Shown here piece by piece: positions 28,755 through 33,187 of a DNA stretch of 54,564 nucleotides. This stretch comes from a virus (lineage: Duplodnaviria; Caudoviricetes). The position numbers were made by a program, and so were the translations under genes. The DNA is taken from IMG/VR virus record IMGVR_UViG_3300045999_012682, positions 1 through 54,564 of that record. One strand, 5' to 3'. Under the pieces are notes generated by a model. It ran no database searches, was not told where the DNA came from, and was given only the letters and a program-made list of their open reading frames with translations. Within the stretch, counting starts at the first letter, position 1, and each line of letters begins with the position of its first letter.

Positions 28755-29354
28755 ATGGCCCAAACTATTTTTGTTTGTCATAATTGCTTTAATACTTTTG
28801 AACGCACTGGAAATGCAGGTGCAATTTGTAGGTCAAAACTTAAAAAAAGAGGCTATGTATTTTGTTCAAAAAATTGTGGTTCATTTAAACATGGTGGCTA
28901 CAAAAACAAAACCCCTGAATATAGCTCTTGGTGCGCAATGAAAAGTAGGTGCAATAATCCCTCTCACGAATCGTATGCTCGTTACGGCGGCCGTGGAATA
29001 ACCTATGATTCTTCTTGGGAAGACTTTACGGTGTTTCTGGCAGATATGGGCAAAAAACCAGATTCCAAAATGGAATTAGAAAGAATCGATAATAATAAAA
29101 ATTATTGCAAAGAAAACTGTCGTTGGGCTACTCACAAAGAACAGACACGTAATCGCGGAGGAAAACGTGCTACAAGAATTTACACATTTGATGGGAAAAC
29201 AATGTGCATTGCAGACTGGGCAAAAGAAGTTGGTATTAGCCCTCAGTCAATGCAAAAAAGATTAAATAATAACTGGCCATTAGAAAAAGCCTTTTCCAAA
29301 GAAAAACACGATGGAAAAGGCGGTACACATATTAAACCAAAACAAAGTTTATAA
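28755..29354 (+). CDS. free-standing HNH homing endonuclease, antisense to structural operon
   Basis: EYSSWCAMKSRC...YGGRGI...FLADMG...LERIDNNKNYCKENCRWAT; N-terminal CxxC...FCSxxC. Confidence 0.85.
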   Translation: MAQTIFVCHNCFNTFERTGNAGAICRSKLKKRGYVFCSKNCGSFKHGGYKNKTPEYSSWCAMKSRCNNPSHESYARYGGRGITYDSSWEDFTVFLADMGKKPDSKMELERIDNNKNYCKENCRWATHKEQTRNRGGKRATRIYTFDGKTMCIADWAKEVGISPQSMQKRLNNNWPLEKAFSKEKHDGKGGTHIKPKQSL

Positions 29355-30023
29355 TCCTGGCAATCGAGTAGCGCTAGTTAATGCTGATAGATAAGGAGAT
29401 ACAGGCGTTAACGTTTGTGCCGAAAAGACATCACGCTGTACAGGCGACATATCTTTCATTGCAAACTGCATGAGAGGACTTTGCAGAGAAGGTGAATTCA
29501 AAAGGAGTTCACCTGCAAAAGCTGCGAGTAAATCCTGTGGATCAATAAGGGATTTAGAGGCTGTTTGCTGAGGAGCTTGATCAAGCGTACCAAGCTTTTC
29601 ATAAATTTCTCTGGCCGCTTTTTGTCTGGCTTCCGTTTTAGGGATACCAGCACGCTCATAATCAACAACAAAACGACGTGCAGCTTCTTCTGGAGAAACG
29701 GCACCACGCAAAGACGCATCCGCTCTTTTCTCTGGGCCTTTTAATTCATGGATAAGAAAATCAGCCTGGGCGTCAATAGAACCTGGATCTAATCCTTTTT
29801 GCTTGGCAAAGTTAATTAAGTTTTTTTGTCTACCTGCAGTCCATTGACCTACACCATAACCACCAACACCCAAAGGTGCGCCAACTTTCCCGCCCTCATT
29901 AATGCGCGGATTAAAACCAGATTCAAGCTGGAAGTTACCAAGTATGCCTGCAGCCTGCTCACGGGTATAACCGTCAGCCAAAAGGCGTCTAGCAATAACA
30001 AGAGCGTTGGGATGTAATAACAT
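29349..30023 (-). CDS. virion-associated lysozyme (Phage_lysozyme2-like)
   Basis: QAAGILGNFQLESGFNP, GVGQWT, QADFLIHEL, AARRFVVDYERAG. Confidence 0.85.
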   Translation of the reverse strand: MLLHPNALVIARRLLADGYTREQAAGILGNFQLESGFNPRINEGGKVGAPLGVGGYGVGQWTAGRQKNLINFAKQKGLDPGSIDAQADFLIHELKGPEKRADASLRGAVSPEEAARRFVVDYERAGIPKTEARQKAAREIYEKLGTLDQAPQQTASKSLIDPQDLLAAFAGELLLNSPSLQSPLMQFAMKDMSPVQRDVFSAQTLTPVSPYLSALTSATRLPGL

Positions 30024-30240: not shown

Positions 30241-30969
30241 TTACTTTCCTGCTTGTTGTAACAAGCGCTTTTTCATTTCTTCTACTAAATTAGGAGAAAG
30301 ACCATATTGAGCAGGATCATATCCTGTCTCAAGGGTTGCTCGTGTTCCCAAATCACCTTGTTGATATGGAATTGCTCCAGGGGCAACTTGTACCGGCGCT
30401 GCAGTTGCTTGCATTGCCTGCATCTCTTGCGGCGACATGCCTGACTGATAGCCAAAAGTACGATCCATTAAAGGATTGAACCTACCAACTGCACCACCGG
30501 GTTGACCCATGGGTGTATTGCCATACTTCTGTTGCCAGATCTGCATGCCGATATCTTCTGCCGACTGCACTTGCTCAGGTGTAGCACCAGCTGCAACCGC
30601 CTTAAGACGAGCATCTTCGTAACGCTTAAGCTCAGGATCTTGTGCAGTTAACTGAGCGATGCGAGAGACATCCTGTTGATAGGCACGATCTGCTGCAGCT
30701 TGTTGACCAGGGAAGCCAGCACCTGGACGAAAGGCTTCTGCGGCAGCACCTGCAGCAAGCTCAGCTTTTTTATACCCTTTTCCATAATCACGCAGGCTAC
30801 CGGCAGGTGCAGGAACACTACGTCCAGCGTAAGTACCACGGCGACCGCCCATGCCACCGCCAGCAGGTACATAAGAAGCGTTACCACCGGGTCGCCCTAA
30901 AATAAGTTGCAGTATTCCGGAAAGATCCGCAACATTAGGATTGGAGCCCGTTCTTGTACCTTGTGCCAT
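30241..30969 (-). CDS. putative internal virion protein
   Basis: Gly/Ala/Gln-rich; start MAQGTRTG at 30969 with GGAGG 5 nt upstream. Confidence 0.7.
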   Translation of the reverse strand: MAQGTRTGSNPNVADLSGILQLILGRPGGNASYVPAGGGMGGRRGTYAGRSVPAPAGSLRDYGKGYKKAELAAGAAAEAFRPGAGFPGQQAAADRAYQQDVSRIAQLTAQDPELKRYEDARLKAVAAGATPEQVQSAEDIGMQIWQQKYGNTPMGQPGGAVGRFNPLMDRTFGYQSGMSPQEMQAMQATAAPVQVAPGAIPYQQGDLGTRATLETGYDPAQYGLSPNLVEEMKKRLLQQAGK

Positions 30970-30971
30970 AA

Positions 30972-31013
30972 TTACCTCCAAACCTCATGTAAATAAAGAC
31001 GAGAACCAACTGC
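30972..31013 (-). pseudogene. orphan duplicate 3' end of gene 31580-32041
   Basis: Translates AVGSRLYLHEVWR*, versus SVGTRIYLHELWR* ending the intact gene. Confidence 0.85.
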
Positions 31014-31021
31014 TCACCTAA

Positions 31022-31537
31022 TTAAAAACATTCTAAATCAAGACACGCAAACTCCCTATAGAAAAGTTTTTGAGCGTCTTGTGCAGCTTTTTTTGCCTCT
31101 TCTTCCGTTTCAAAATTACCAACCGTAACGCGTTTGCCATCAAGAGTCACCCTGACTCTATATAAACCTGTATCTTTTCTTTGTGAATAACCTACAAAGA
31201 TCTTGTTATAGTTGTTTTCAGTTCCAGTGGCTAATCTAAGATTTACCCAGCGGTTGTCCTTTGGATTTCTATTTCTATGCTCAACCAGTGAAGAGCCTGG
31301 ATCTTTGCCGGTCATAAGAAGCCACGCAATCCGGCTGATGTAATAACTTTTTCCTTTATGTTTTACAACCCAAGTTTTTCTTCTTTCTGGACCACCCAAA
31401 GAACCTATTGTTTTGTTTAATTTTTGTTTATCAGCCTTGCATCGAGACTTAATTAAAAGCAACTCTCCCGTATCAGGCAAGTACTCATAGTATTCTTTTA
31501 ACTCTTCCAGGGGAGGCAAAGGCGCTGACGCAACCAT
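31022..31537 (-). CDS. HNH_3 + AP2-like homing endonuclease
   Basis: YYISRIAWLL, VEHRNRNPKDNRWVNLRLAT, YRVRVTLDGKRVTVGNFETEEEA. Confidence 0.85.
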   Translation of the reverse strand: MVASAPLPPLEELKEYYEYLPDTGELLLIKSRCKADKQKLNKTIGSLGGPERRKTWVVKHKGKSYYISRIAWLLMTGKDPGSSLVEHRNRNPKDNRWVNLRLATGTENNYNKIFVGYSQRKDTGLYRVRVTLDGKRVTVGNFETEEEAKKAAQDAQKLFYREFACLDLECF

Positions 31538-31579
31538 GCTTTTAATGCGTGTATCAATATTTTAACATACACTGATTAA

Positions 31580-32041
31580 TTAGCGCCATAATTCGTGCAG
31601 GTATATCCGTGTTCCCACAGAAACATCGGCGGGACCAGGTAATGCCTGGATAAATTCAGCACCAGAGCGTTCGTAACGATACCTGGCCTGGAATGGATCC
31701 TTGTAGTTCGGAACGTAAAGGATGCCAGCTAAACGGTTGGTTTCGTAGAGATAAATCTCATCCCAAACCTTGAGTGCCTCTTTGGCATTGCTAGAGCGAA
31801 TCGTACGATCCACGTCACCAGCAATACTTTCGAGGCGAGTAGAAGGTGAAGTGGCAACTTCGGTCTTCTTCTCTGCCGTATCACAACGACCAATCTGAAT
31901 AATGATCTTGTCGTAGAAATACGAGTCTGGGACCGTATTCATGGCTTCTTCCAAACGAGCATAATCGCCCGCTGGCACGGAAACCGTGAAGTAGCCCAGG
32001 TGATACCGGACCCTGCTTTTGTCAAAATCAGACAGCTGCAC
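31580..32041 (-). CDS. putative head-tail adaptor/completion protein
   Basis: LSDFDKSRVRYHLGY N-terminus; position downstream of capsid genes. Confidence 0.6.
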   Translation of the reverse strand: MQLSDFDKSRVRYHLGYFTVSVPAGDYARLEEAMNTVPDSYFYDKIIIQIGRCDTAEKKTEVATSPSTRLESIAGDVDRTIRSSNAKEALKVWDEIYLYETNRLAGILYVPNYKDPFQARYRYERSGAEFIQALPGPADVSVGTRIYLHELWR

Positions 32042-32078
32042 AGTCTATTTCCGTTATGTTATCAATTATAAACGCTAG

Positions 32079-32705
32079 TTATCCGTAGATAATTTCATCC
32101 ATTGGCCCAGAGTACATCATCTGTTGCAACATAGAAGGTGTGCGCTGTGGAGACAATGCACTGGCAAATAAAGATTCTGTTAATGTCTCTTGGATTGTTT
32201 TTTTCTTTGGTTGCAGTGCATTCAAAAGAGCACCAAATAACGATGCATTTGTAGCTGCTGTATTAACAGATCCAGGGTTTTCAGAAGATACAGGTTGTGT
32301 CGCGGTTGGCATTGCATCTGTTAACTTCCCTTCTGGTGTTTTATATCTACCAGTGGCAAGCCATTCAAGTTGCTGGTCTGTTAAATATTTCTTGCCTTCG
32401 AGCGCCAGGTGCACATGTGTATCATGCCCTGGATCTCCAGGCCCCAACGCCTCATTGAATGTTCCTAACTGTTTGGCACGCCAACTTAACTCACCTGTGC
32501 GTTGTTTCCAGGGGATCGGTTTTCCTCCTTCGTAAGCGGGAGCAACATCTGGACGCCAGTCGGTAACATCAATTGCTAACCCTTTGGGATGATAACCGGT
32601 GGGAGAATGACCTCCTCCAACACCGCCAAAGGCAGGATTTTCACCTACACGTAAACCAAAACGTTGAAGGTATTTACCTATATCAACAATCGATCTTTCG
32701 GCCAT
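32079..32705 (-). CDS. virion protein with M15-like metallopeptidase motif
   Basis: GHSPTGYHPKGLAIDV...GHDTHVHLAL; likely start MAERSIVD at 32705. Confidence 0.65.
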   Translation of the reverse strand: MAERSIVDIGKYLQRFGLRVGENPAFGGVGGGHSPTGYHPKGLAIDVTDWRPDVAPAYEGGKPIPWKQRTGELSWRAKQLGTFNEALGPGDPGHDTHVHLALEGKKYLTDQQLEWLATGRYKTPEGKLTDAMPTATQPVSSENPGSVNTAATNASLFGALLNALQPKKKTIQETLTESLFASALSPQRTPSMLQQMMYSGPMDEIIYG

Positions 32706-32732
32706 CGTATGTTTTATTTTTATTGTAAAACG

Positions 32733-32757
32733 AAAAAACCCCTGGTCTCCCAGGGGC
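32733..32757 (-). terminator. rho-independent terminator after capsid operon
   Basis: - strand GCCCCTGG-GAGA-CCAGGGGT-TTTTT. Confidence 0.85.
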
Positions 32758-32776
32758 ATTATTATAGAAGCCTTAA

Positions 32777-33187
32777 TTAAACACGGATCAAGTCTGCTGA
32801 AAAAACAGAATCCCAATCAACTCTTTTGATTTGTCGCAGCTGCTCAAGATTGTTAAATCTTTCACCCGATAGTGACATCTGAAGATCTTTAATCTCCCGC
32901 GCTGTCTTCAAACCGATACCCTTAATATGATCAGCGATCATCTGCGCAGTAGCGCCATTAACATTCAACCGGGTATCTGGTGGAAAGGTACGAGGTTCTT
33001 CCTGCGCAGCTTTATCTTTTACCTGAAGAGTTTTTACCTTTTTGGTAGCCTCTTCATCGGGCGTAAGTTCACTTTTATAAGCGGTATAAAGGCGACCGTC
33101 CTGATCTTCGACCATGAACCAATCGCCATTATCCCATTCGCTTACGATTTTGACTCGGGCTCCTGTTTTTTTGTGCTGGTAAAGCAT
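32777..33187 (-). CDS. helix-hairpin-helix (ComEA-like) DNA-binding protein
   Basis: LNVNGATAQMIADHIKGIGLKTAREI...FNNLEQLRQIKRV. Confidence 0.75.
   Translation of the reverse strand: MLYQHKKTGARVKIVSEWDNGDWFMVEDQDGRLYTAYKSELTPDEEATKKVKTLQVKDKAAQEEPRTFPPDTRLNVNGATAQMIADHIKGIGLKTAREIKDLQMSLSGERFNNLEQLRQIKRVDWDSVFSADLIRV

Follow-up and report, generated by a model that had tools for sequence, protein, structure and literature searches.

A probable HNH homing-endonuclease cassette that brings a spare end for its host gene in S-EIVl-like freshwater cyanophages

Phage genomes have almost no non-coding room, and the textbook niches of phage homing endonucleases are the spaces between genes, self-splicing introns or inteins, and the splitting of a gene. 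The 54,564-nt stretch of DNA analysed here (the window), a metagenome-derived virus record (IMGVR_UViG_3300045999_012682), raises the question of how a nuclease gene can occupy the coding end of a small gene, gene A, that nevertheless stays whole. The insertion point, after codon 139 and with 14 codons left before the gene A stop, lies within the conserved GPAD(T)xVG motif of a gene of S-EIVl-like freshwater cyanophages, and the inserted DNA provides the replacement end. Read along the minus strand, the 5' part of the gene is thus followed by an imported in-frame 3' end, a nuclease gene and the displaced native 3' fragment (Table 1), an order that recurs in every HNH-positive locus whose downstream sequence was searched. 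As argued below, the element is very probably a free-standing HNH (AP2-like) homing-endonuclease cassette of ~611 nt (~31014-31624) that sits inside the gene A 3' end and is mobile by homing.

Table 1. Features of the gene A locus, in window coordinates.
Feature	Position	Strand	Description
Gene A	31580-32041	-	153-aa ORF; ends in VSVGTRIYLHELWR and a stop codon
Gene A, resident part	31625-32041	-	Codons 1-139, through GAT (Asp139)
Gene A, replacement end (cassette-borne)	31580-31624	-	14 codons (VSVGTRIYLHELWR) and TAA stop; continues the resident reading frame
Spacer, gene A stop to HNH start	31538-31579	-	12-pair inverted repeat, arms 31567-31579 and 31542-31554
HNH endonuclease ORF	31022-31537	-	171 aa; C-terminal AP2-like region
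Cassette 3' end	31014-31021	-	8 nt (TTAGGTGA); TGA closes the relic frame upstream
Relic	30972-31013	-	AVGSRLYLHEVWR plus stop; the recipient's original last 13 codons and stop, without a start codon
GGAGG within the relic	30975-30979	-	Contained in TGG AGG; 5 nt before the ATG of the next gene
Next gene	30241-30969	-	242 aa from the ATG at 30969; hypervariable 5' part

The first-pass annotation of this DNA had described the end of gene A as duplicated around the HNH gene, and this duplication is real and beyond chance: the relic matches the end of gene A at 42/42 nt in the HNH-free locus L012 and at all but 1 nt in L058. The last 13 codons of gene A, which read SVGTRIYLHELWR before the stop, share nine of 13 residues and 24 of 42 nt with the relic. 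Aligned codon by codon (gene A/relic), the two copies read TCT/GCA, GTG/GTT, GGA/GGT, ACA/TCT, CGG/CGT, ATA/CTT, TAC/TAT, CTG/TTA, CAC/CAT, GAA/GAG, TTA/GTT, TGG/TGG and CGC/AGG, each followed by TAA, so that every one of the eight identical residues other than Trp is written with a different codon. An in-frame TGA precedes the untranslated relic, and TT and the ATG of the next gene come directly after it.

The state of the site without a nuclease was read from 80 related IMG/VR loci, kept from 592 confirmed ones in a sampling biased towards the window's own allele; 66 of them are HNH-free, 12 contain an HNH cassette, one is cut at a contig end and one (L002) is aberrant. All 66 HNH-free loci end gene A in relic-type sequence directly before the next gene, as had been predicted, and so does the cultured relative S-EIVl, whose site is empty and which is the single relative in the annotated phage collection (74% identity over 33% of the query). 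In BLAST comparisons of the window with the HNH-free loci L058, L063 and L012, homology stops at position 31626, and with L058 and L012 it restarts at 31014, the 3' edge of the cassette, where the filler sequence differs from cassette to cassette. Between an occupied locus and an empty counterpart with the same next gene (L026 and L071), 619 nt stand in place of 3 nt. The resident part of gene A is 97% identical to L058 over 417 nt, with no mismatch in the final 57 nt before the junction; no left co-conversion tract is visible, and the left flank is uninformative on this point because these 57 nt are nearly invariant in all alleles.

The history of this small gene switches sharply at the junction, and it is the cassette that accounts for the switch. 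Compared with L058, the nearest empty relative, synonymous codon differences amount to 12/136 in the body of gene A and 7/8 in its tail (Fisher p = 1.7e-6), from which it follows that the tail arrived with the ~611-nt cassette; the corresponding values for L012 are 23/137 and 8/8 (p = 2e-6). Counted over distinct alleles, whose members are not phylogenetically independent, a VS-type tail is found in 14/14 HNH-positive and 13/54 HNH-free alleles (p = 1.6e-7). The type of the functional tail tracks the nuclease, and the type of the relic tracks the recipient lineage: a relic is present in every HNH-positive locus with downstream sequence searched, and it matches the local lineage, being S-EIVl-like in L092, ending in AYR in L093 and starting at PAD in L118-L121. 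Since the L092 relic differs markedly from the others, a transfer involving it would have poor right-hand homology or be old.

The two genes on either side of the junction vary to very different extents. Gene A matches a single family, phrog_29158, of unknown function, and has no Pfam match; neither PDB nor BFVD yielded a match to its AlphaFold model (pLDDT 83.1) at E <= 0.001. The first-pass annotation had treated it as an essential structural gene; the one hint of a possible virion role is the use of this domain as the N-terminal module of fibre-like proteins. The next gene has no family match in Pfam or PHROG, and clustering its first 150 nt from 62 distinct loci at 70% identity gives 40 clusters. 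Pairs reaching 80% identity make up 1% for these 150 nt vs 91% for gene A, and the right flank is non-homologous in most locus pairs. By its position and conservation, the relic end may act as the ribosome-binding site of the next gene, as the first-pass annotation had suggested: 35 of 54 distinct empty alleles have the arrangement TGG AGG TAA NN ATG and the remainder a CGN TAATG overlap, and of the window's 51 ORFs that reach 120 aa only one is preceded by a full GGAGG.

Why the two gene ends differ so strongly at the codon level is a separate matter. The imported end had been called fully recoded, with protection against self-cleavage and against recombination between the copies as the proposed benefit. 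Complete recoding holds for the window (8/8), which is the extreme among 14 distinct cassettes; pooled over all of them, 80 of 107 shared codons differ vs 67 expected from random codon choice (computed from the window's codon usage), a general pattern of approximately saturation-level divergence. Nor is recombination between copies fully blocked, as HNH-free alleles with chimeric tails exist. An alternative that we regard as evenly balanced is that the divergence is passive: the last seven codons would be constrained at the nucleotide level in empty genomes, for example as part of the next gene's initiation region, and once the site is occupied the relic would take over this task, leaving the old copy to drift to synonymous saturation with no adaptation against self-cleavage or recombination. 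In empty alleles, codons 147-153 have a third-position entropy of 0.33 bits for the 41 TA-type and 0.17 bits for the 13 VS-type alleles, vs 0.93 bits in the gene body, and in the last seven codons of the 14 HNH-positive functional tails it reaches 1.20 bits vs 0.96 bits in their bodies; moreover, 80 differing codons are only a modest excess over the 67 expected. The HNH subfamilies are as low as 46% identical, making the cassette old, and the 3' block TAT TTA CAT GAG GTT TGG AGG is intact in 7 of 10 complete relics shown. A nuclease recognising only this block would therefore cut its own genome, so recognition would have to span the junction and any protection against self-cleavage would be limited to the junction-proximal codons. 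Other features sit less well with drift: TTA for Leu148 occurs in 0/14 HNH-positive tails vs 44/54 empty alleles, GTT at codon 151 in 0/14 vs 50/54, and CAC for His149 in 11/14 vs 0/54, a pattern more consistent than drift alone predicts, although common ancestry could also yield it, and at the junction-proximal codons 140-146 the amino acids differ too. Judged from these codon patterns, relaxed nucleotide-level constraint would explain much of the tail divergence and, outside the junction-proximal codons, would account for it at least as well as protection against self-cleavage.

The HNH ORF matches Pfam HNH_3 (44.2 bits, cut-off 24.8) and phrog_99 'HNH endonuclease' (8.7e-45), and contains the catalytic His and metal-binding Asn of the HNH motif, its H87 and N108 aligning with H75 and N96 of I-HmuI (1U3E, E = 0.054), a type of enzyme in which the roles of these residues are described in the accessible text of PMC12724721. 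Among 10 aligned homologues, all are full length (169-172 aa) and retain N108, and nine retain H87, the catalytic His being replaced by Tyr in one subfamily member (L016/L117). The structure model of the nuclease (pLDDT 77.4) has no Foldseek match at E <= 0.001; the best match is 1u3e (prob 0.87, E 0.1), and AP2 matches include 7et5 (prob 0.99, rmsd 1.5 over 44 columns, E 0.46) and 1gcc (prob 0.89). The AP2 assignment of the C-terminal region is accordingly a weak one, with a Pfam score (19.6 bits) below the cut-off of 33.3 and a high Foldseek probability accompanied by a poor E-value. The HNH-AP2 family was reportedly first described by Magnani et al. in 2004. The ORF is predicted to encode an active nuclease, with a cut position near the insertion point.

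Between gene A and this ORF, 93.9% of the cells of the spacer repeat pair, vs 16-51% with the partners slid, and the loop contains an invariant TGnTAnnnT that resembles an extended -10 element (T22, G23, T25, A26 and T30 are invariant in alignment A1 of 11 cassettes). The inverted repeat is conserved, but its reading as an RNA structure was not adopted, as only one pair covaries, 129 of 500 shuffles equal the observation and the fold z-score is -1.05. A consensus promoter scan of the minus strand found no sigma-70-type site with a -35 element, and no terminator; the RNA runs contained at most 0.09 of the sampled words. The extended -10-like reading of the loop comes from the invariant columns, and the spacer may have a regulatory role. 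The view of the arrangement as splicing-free stands: the Rfam matches (E <= 1, 30800-32100) include no intron family, and gene A, the HNH ORF and the relic are set apart from one another by stop codons; the element can thus be classed as neither intron nor intein.

Nuclease homologues at the gene A site were found on 26 further IMG/VR contigs, drawn from many samples, and form three subfamilies. A search with the HNH protein placed 16/16 loci directly after gene A, and one with the HNH alignment 23/25 (six newly read, 17 on contigs already examined), the other two being weak matches elsewhere (L122, L123); the window's own record holds a single nuclease copy. Presence and absence are polymorphic at this one fixed site and discordant with the phylogeny of the host gene: on a gene-A-body tree of 72 rows, the 14 HNH-positive rows need 10 changes, at least six of them forced by well-supported branches, and HNH-positive loci are spread over 10 of the 40 next-gene clusters. 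Occupied and empty alleles co-occur in all four metagenome runs examined, where some contigs span the cassette and empty-allele contigs, accepted at >=90% likeness and possibly from other strains, join 31010/31014 straight to 31626 and restore GAC ACA GCA.

The nuclease might also be kept for the benefit of the phage, through exchange of the hypervariable downstream modules or exclusion of co-infecting relatives, rather than being purely selfish. Its location precisely where a conserved block meets one with 40 sequence types is in keeping with this, as are, in the accessible parts of the respective papers, nuclease genes at genetic-exchange boundaries in ICP1-like phages (PMC10448857) and an intron endonuclease mediating phage competition (PMC11620839). 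We nevertheless consider it unlikely, as the downstream gene is equally variable in the 66 HNH-free loci, the nuclease is found in only 12/80 loci of a sample biased towards the window's own allele, and Tyr at the catalytic His of L016/L117 is expected of a decaying selfish gene. Occurrence of all homologues at one site would also fit an immobile, vertically inherited HNH gene around which the gene end was duplicated locally in tandem and then diverged in place, but this is very improbable given a body 97% identical to the empty allele yet a tail saturated with differences, occupied and empty pairs with both flanks in common, a patchy HNH-positive distribution on the gene tree, relics that match local lineages and both alleles in 4/4 runs. 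That the locus is an assembly artefact, such as a chimeric contig, as the metagenomic source of the record might suggest, can be practically dismissed, for the same architecture appears on the 26 other contigs and independent runs X2 and X3 contain contigs across both junctions with 0 differences.

How does a mobile cassette with a replacement gene end compare with known systems? The precedent that had been invoked, C-terminus-replacing endonuclease elements of fungal mitochondria, is genuine: the accessible text of PMC3630166 describes mORFs in atp6 of Allomyces macrogynus and in atp6, atp9, cox2 and nad3 of Glomus, with a foreign in-frame C-terminus, an endonuclease ORF and then a duplicate of the native C-terminus. 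There the native copy has 91-98% nt identity to relatives vs 64-81% for the inserted one, and the protein is conserved; the phage case differs from these organellar elements, whose nucleases belong to the LAGLIDADG or GIY-YIG type and whose ORF is sometimes fused in frame to the host gene, and that text mentions no function of the relic for a gene downstream of it. WHO elements at the yeast aldolase gene FBA1 (Coughlan et al. 2020, eLife, PMC7282813) similarly place a nuclease between a full-length gene with an imported 3' end and the displaced old 3' fragment, and the 5' and 3' parts of their host gene have discordant histories. According to the accessible part of that paper, their 3'-end-swap homing logic is demonstrated experimentally, including cleavage, the displaced fragment is proposed as a second homology arm, as we propose for the phage relic, and resistance results from allelic differences rather than from interruption of the site. 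The two differ in nuclease (an intein-like LAGLIDADG-zinc-finger protein vs HNH), in the length replaced (~400 bp vs 42-51 nt), in setting (a yeast chromosome with homing at meiosis vs a phage) and in the tandem clusters of old elements, present in WHO and absent from the phage locus. At gene A, too, the relic is nearer to the alleles of relatives than the imported end is and the 5' and 3' histories differ, as in mORFs and WHO elements; kinship with LAGLIDADG, GIY-YIG or WHO nucleases was rejected, the nuclease being HNH, so the cassette works like these elements without being their relative.

Among phages, MobA of T4-like phages, which splits gene 39/60 and is associated with a 50-nt bypass (preprint 10.1101/2022.08.31.505936, accessible part), is likewise an HNH cassette: part of its host gene is removed, and a diverged homologous copy (homR), which includes the nick site, is brought in. 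Its breaks relative to empty relatives are clean, and it has inserted repeatedly at one site and been lost progressively. It differs in that the two parts of the gene encode separate proteins, no relic of the deleted native segment is left and immunity needs the translational-bypass insert; polymorphisms of the replacement copy alone did not block nicking, so tail divergence need not equal immunity. The Seg and Mob free-standing endonucleases of T-even phages, whose 'intron-less homing' is reviewed in PMC2988022, resemble the cassette as phage nuclease genes inherited via break repair in a nuclease-less relative; in the accessible text, HNH members nick one strand, and hairpins and promoters often directly precede the nuclease ORFs. 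These genes lie between genes or split them, and the word stem 'duplicat' is absent from that text, so a carried replacement gene end is outside the T-even picture; the T-even intergenic type with unaltered host genes does not apply to an insertion 14 codons inside gene A that brings a replacement end. For HNH-AP2 homing endonucleases, a family noted for ICP1 phages, the accessible text of PMC10448857 describes no duplication of gene ends, and the cassette's own AP2 match is weak. In the literature outside subscription journals and supplementary files, our search for a phage description of the gene-end-swap layout returned mitochondrial, yeast or unrelated papers only.

Beside the observed anatomy, empty-site alleles, foreign tail, patchy distribution and natural co-occurrence of both alleles, we set the following homing route. 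In a mixed infection, by analogy with WHO elements and mORFs, the nuclease would nick or cut empty alleles at or near codons 139-141, and the break would be repaired from the occupied genome, with left-hand homology provided by the gene A body and right-hand homology by the ~42-nt relic together with the TAA-NN-ATG junction. The right arm would have to be inside gene A because the 5' part of the next gene is non-homologous between most phages. The relic would keep the translation-initiation region of the next gene (GGAGG) in place, and the cassette's own anciently diverged last 14 codons and stop keep gene A whole. An arm of 42 nt is short for homologous repair.

A homing cassette at this locus adds a fourth way for phage homing endonucleases, that of bringing a spare gene end, and marks the border of a hypervariable neighbour gene, which bears on how recombination and 'mosaic' boundaries in phage genomes are read and how short orphan gene-end repeats are annotated. 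Nature also supplies unusually clean controls: empty sites by the dozen, nuclease genes of three subfamilies, relics matched to their lineage and the presence of both alleles in the same water samples. The locus gives concrete predictions on the alleles that should be cut. A broader reading, which we put forward tentatively and hold to be somewhat less probable than its negation, is that the last ~42 nt of gene A are dual-use, serving both as the conserved initiation region of the next gene and as the minimal right arm by which the cassette hops between wild cyanophages with an otherwise non-homologous downstream gene. The population would then display all three stages of a homing cycle, as sensitive TA-type empty, occupied and HNH-free VS-type chimeric alleles, of which the chimeras would be traces left by loss or abortive conversion, with predicted resistance. 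If so, the 3'-end swap may be a general strategy of phage endonucleases, giving them entry into tightly packed phage coding DNA without introns or inteins.

In the window, ORF calling puts all genes of the locus on the minus strand (table below), with the HNH nuclease ORF between gene A, whose last codons we call the functional tail, and a relic of the same gene end that lacks a start codon, has an in-frame TGA immediately upstream and starts 8 bases past the stop of the HNH ORF. The figures given for the two copies in the first-pass annotation are correct (9 of 13 residues and 24 of 42 nt identical), and on recount all eight identical non-Trp residues are indeed encoded by different codons. 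An intron or intein was considered and rejected: no Rfam intron model matches in the locus region and stop codons lie between all three reading frames (gene A, HNH ORF and relic), so the element is neither.

Features of the gene A locus in the window and in selected related loci
Feature	Position	Strand	Details
Peptidase-like neighbour	32079-32816	-	
Gene A	31580-32041	-	153 aa; C-terminus ...PGPAD VSVGTRIYLHELWR, then stop
Spacer, gene A stop to HNH ORF start	31538-31579	-	42 nt
HNH ORF	31022-31537	-	171 aa
Relic	30972-31013	-	GCA GTT GGT TCT CGT CTT TAT TTA CAT GAG GTT TGG AGG TAA, reading AVGSRLYLHEVWR, then stop
Constrained gene A end	30975-30995 (window relic)		in HNH-free loci, final 21 nt of gene A (e.g. 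L012:3438-3458)
GGAGG	30975-30979	-	5 nt upstream of the next gene's ATG
Next gene	30241-30969	-	TT ATG after relic; ATG at 30969
Lysozyme-like neighbour	29349-30023	-	Phage_lysozyme2 domain, 8.2e-39
Aberrant related locus	L002:3400-4800		gene A with cassette-type tail
Nuclease with altered catalytic position	L016:1420-1935		Tyr at the His87 position

The peptidase-like neighbour (annotated as peptidase M23 family in Synechococcus phage S-EIVl, with no Pfam match in the window) and the Phage_lysozyme2 neighbour place the locus within a virion or cell-wall-degrading module. Gene A itself is assigned no function by Pfam, PHROG, PDB or BFVD structure searches and matches only 173 cluster representatives at E ≤ 0.001. 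Its domain (residues 1 to ~139) is N-terminal in some proteins of 357-514 aa (e.g. cluster representatives P0176, P0188, P0206, P0222 and P0262), which also match collagen-like, carbohydrate-binding (CBM_5_12), F5/8 type C and Laminin_G_3 domains, only Laminin_G_3 in P0262 being above the cut-off; their homology to gene A stops at about the cassette's insertion point. This composition suggests that the long proteins are tail-fibre-like and hints at a fibre-anchor role for gene A.

The window record (54.6 kb, estimated completeness 69%) has a sole annotated relative, S-EIVl (74% identical across 33% of the query). The gene A homologue there closes with ...NWR (TGG AGA TAA) and leads through TT straight into the next gene's ATG, without a nuclease. 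At least 592 homologous loci were confirmed in IMG/VR, and the best 80 in a ranking by similarity to the window's protein were analysed. As predicted for HNH-free alleles, 66 of these 80 carry a relic-type end directly before the next gene (...TAT TTA CAT GAG GTT TGG, AGG or CGN, T..), and the codons of SVGTRIYLHELWR are not found in HNH-free relatives, the cassette-type 3' half being present in none of 54 distinct HNH-free alleles. The cassette occurs in 12 of the 80, a frequency overstated by the ranking, with the relic visible in 11; the twelfth (L076) stops at the contig end. One of the remaining two loci is cut at the stop codon. The other, L002, is aberrant: gene A has the cassette-type tail TAC CTT CAC GAA CTA TGG CGT TAA with neither HNH gene nor relic after it, and the frame of the next gene is open from the gene A stop onward with no ATG, GTG or TTG near, which may reflect deletion of nuclease, relic and the neighbour's start, or an assembly problem.

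Comparison with such empty sites defines the boundaries of the element. BLAST homology between the window and HNH-free loci L058, L063 and L012 is lost at 31626 and regained at 31014, a single codon, Thr140 (ACN), being exchanged for about 611 nt. The window and L058 agree at 97% of positions in the gene A body, including all 57 nt leading up to the junction, and the 45-nt tail has more than 20 mismatches; synonymous codon differences number 12/136 in the body and 7/8 in the tail against L058 (Fisher p = 1.7e-6), and 23/137 and 8/8 against L012 (p = 2e-6). The window's relic is identical to the L012 tail across 42 nt. Likewise, occupied L026 and empty L071 share the same next gene and flanks 90.6% and 91.5% identical, with 619 nt in place of 3 nt. 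The sharp body/tail difference, the relic match and the L026/L071 pair together show that the functional tail arrived with the cassette and that the relic is the recipient's own gene end. The functional tail is VS-type in all 14 distinct cassette-bearing (HNH+) alleles versus 13 of 54 empty ones (p = 1.6e-7), and the relic type tracks the local lineage: AVGSR[IL]YLHEVWR in most HNH+ loci, S-EIVl-like ASSLRIYLNLAWR in L092, TAVGSRIYLHEAYR in L093, and, with the third nuclease subfamily (its own functional tail ending ..YLN[TLI][NH]WR), a longer PADTAVGSRIYLHEVWR.

The nuclease scores 44.2 bits with Pfam HNH_3, above the threshold of 24.8, and has a phrog_99 ('HNH endonuclease') match at 8.7e-45; its AP2 match is sub-threshold (19.6 bits against a cut-off of 33.3). 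In an alignment with I-HmuI (E = 0.054), H87 falls opposite H75 and N108 opposite N96, residues whose roles are quoted in PMC12724721. I-HmuI is also the best PDB match of an AlphaFold model (pLDDT 77.4), at only E 0.1, with AP2 domains lower in the list at high probability and poor E-value. Besides the window, 26 contigs bear the cassette, with nucleases in three subfamilies (identity to the window's protein 73-87%, about 61% and about 46%) and ORFs full length in 10 of 10 aligned. All 16 loci found by HNH-protein search directly adjoin the 3' side of gene A, as do 23 of 25 from an HNH-alignment search (6 newly read, L115 and L117-L121; 17 on contigs also in earlier searches), the other two being weak matches elsewhere. 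In a 72-row tree of gene A bodies, explaining the 14 HNH+ rows takes 10 changes, and well-supported branches make at least 6 of these unavoidable. L016 and L117, of one subfamily, have Tyr at the catalytic His87 position (VEYKNRN) in an otherwise intact ORF; this may be an endonuclease that has lost activity and is only beginning to decay. In an alignment of 11 cassette spacers (A1), a conserved 12-pair inverted repeat lies just 5' of the HNH start, its covariation not significant, with an invariant TGnTAnnnT, an extended -10-like element, in the loop; this geometry is reminiscent of the hairpin-plus-promoter control of T4 endonuclease genes.

Distant gene A homologues conserve no C-terminal motif better than GPAD(T)xVG, within which the insertion point lies, and homing endonucleases typically target conserved motifs. 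In pairwise comparisons of 62 distinct loci, 91% of pairs are at least 80% identical over the 150 nt of gene A that precede the tail; over the initial 150 nt of the next gene only 1% of pairs reach that level (median 56%; 40 clusters, over 10 of which the HNH+ loci are spread). The next gene thus looks like a module-swapping hot spot starting exactly at its start codon; its C-terminal part, including an AAERAYQ..SRVAQLTAQDPEL motif, is conserved in the window and in homologues in L002-L121. Since its 5' part is hypervariable, a cassette 3' of the gene A stop would find no right-hand homology in most potential recipients, and placement 14 codons upstream of the stop would keep the last 42 nt of gene A as a conserved right arm. 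In yeast WHO elements, that role is assigned to the displaced FBA1 fragment, and allele-specific cleavage with 3'-end replacement was shown experimentally (PMC7282813).

The functional copy had been described as fully recoded. That holds in the window, where the 8/8 differing codons (P = 0.014 under a codon-usage model) are the extreme among 14 distinct cassettes, and fails across cassettes: pooled, codons differ at 80 of the 107 residues shared, where the window's codon usage predicts 67, which argues that the copies have diverged to about saturation, with a modest excess over random among cassettes that are not independent observations. Individual codons separate the classes, TTA at Leu148 occurring in 0/14 HNH+ functional tails and 44/54 empty alleles, GTT at codon 151 in 0/14 and 50/54, and CAC at His149 in 11/14 and 0/54. 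Because the relic of an occupied genome retains an intact TAT TTA CAT GAG GTT TGG AGG block, the nuclease cannot recognise this block alone; its target must then reach across the junction around codons 139-141, broken on both sides by insertion, which leaves only the junction-proximal codons (VS.GT versus TA.GS) as candidates for immunity. Divergence alone need not protect, as the MobA precedent indicates (10.1101/2022.08.31.505936).

Recoding had also been proposed as a barrier to recombination between the copies, and here it appears incomplete. Thirteen distinct HNH-free alleles have chimeric tails, with a VSVGTR.. 5' end and a 3' end in relic-type codons. In particular, HNH-free L030, with a body 95.6% identical to that of occupied L026 over 1338 nt, has a tail made of the 5' part of the L026 functional tail and then a 32-nt perfect match to the L026 relic, and a rare ATA at position 146 is found in 9/14 HNH+, 5/13 chimeric and 0/41 TA-type alleles. 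The simplest reading is cassette loss or abortive conversion via recombination between the copies. Alternatively, the chimeric alleles could be an ancestral lineage and the source of the cassette's tail, and the S-EIVl gene A also reads VS; it is on the recombination reading that recoding would be no full barrier.

The first-pass suggestion that the relic supplies the next gene's ribosome-binding site extends to empty alleles. Of 54 distinct empty alleles, 35 have GGAGG at the same position, and the rest overlap stop and start (CGN TAATG). Few ORFs of this phage carry such a Shine-Dalgarno-like motif: GGAG or GAGG lies 5' of 6/51 and the full GGAGG 5' of 1/51. Third-position entropy over the last seven codons is 0.33 bits in TA-type and 0.17 bits in VS-type empty alleles, compared with 0.93 in the gene body and 1.20 in HNH+ functional tails, pointing to a nucleotide-level constraint on the end adjoining the next gene that is lifted in the cassette copy. 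Synonymous constraint on TAT TTA CAT GAG GTT TGG extends 21 nt beyond GGAGG, well into the sequence upstream of it, and is also present in empty alleles without GGAGG. Service in the next gene's initiation is the best available explanation for this conservation. In L074, L090, L091, L093 and L094 an in-frame ATG before the relic creates a 15-17-codon mini-ORF; the one in L093 ends in a TAATG overlap with the start of the next gene, an arrangement that resembles re-established translational coupling.

Four independent metagenome runs (lake, aquatic, estuary and drinking water; contigs accepted at ≥90% likeness) all contain cassette-covering contigs, which in runs X2 and X3 span both junctions with 0 differences, and all contain contigs joining 31010/31014 straight to 31626, restoring GAC ACA GCA. 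Empty and occupied alleles therefore co-occur within one water sample, a common genome background not being implied.

Elements that replace a gene's 3' end are already known, as WHO elements, fungal mitochondrial mORFs, whose layout (PMC3630166) the cassette matches, and partly MobA of T4-like phages, which splits the gene and, although it provides a diverged copy (homR), removes the native segment (10.1101/2022.08.31.505936). A review of T4 mobile elements (PMC2988022) describes intergenic, intron-borne and gene-splitting endonucleases and contains the stem 'duplicat' 0 times; a full-text literature search, with subscription journals and supplements outside its reach, returned no account of a phage element that brings its own replacement gene end and leaves the relic in place. 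What sets this cassette apart is the HNH (AP2-like) nuclease family, the phage host and the very short duplicated segment and, probably, the doubling of the relic as the neighbouring gene's initiation region.
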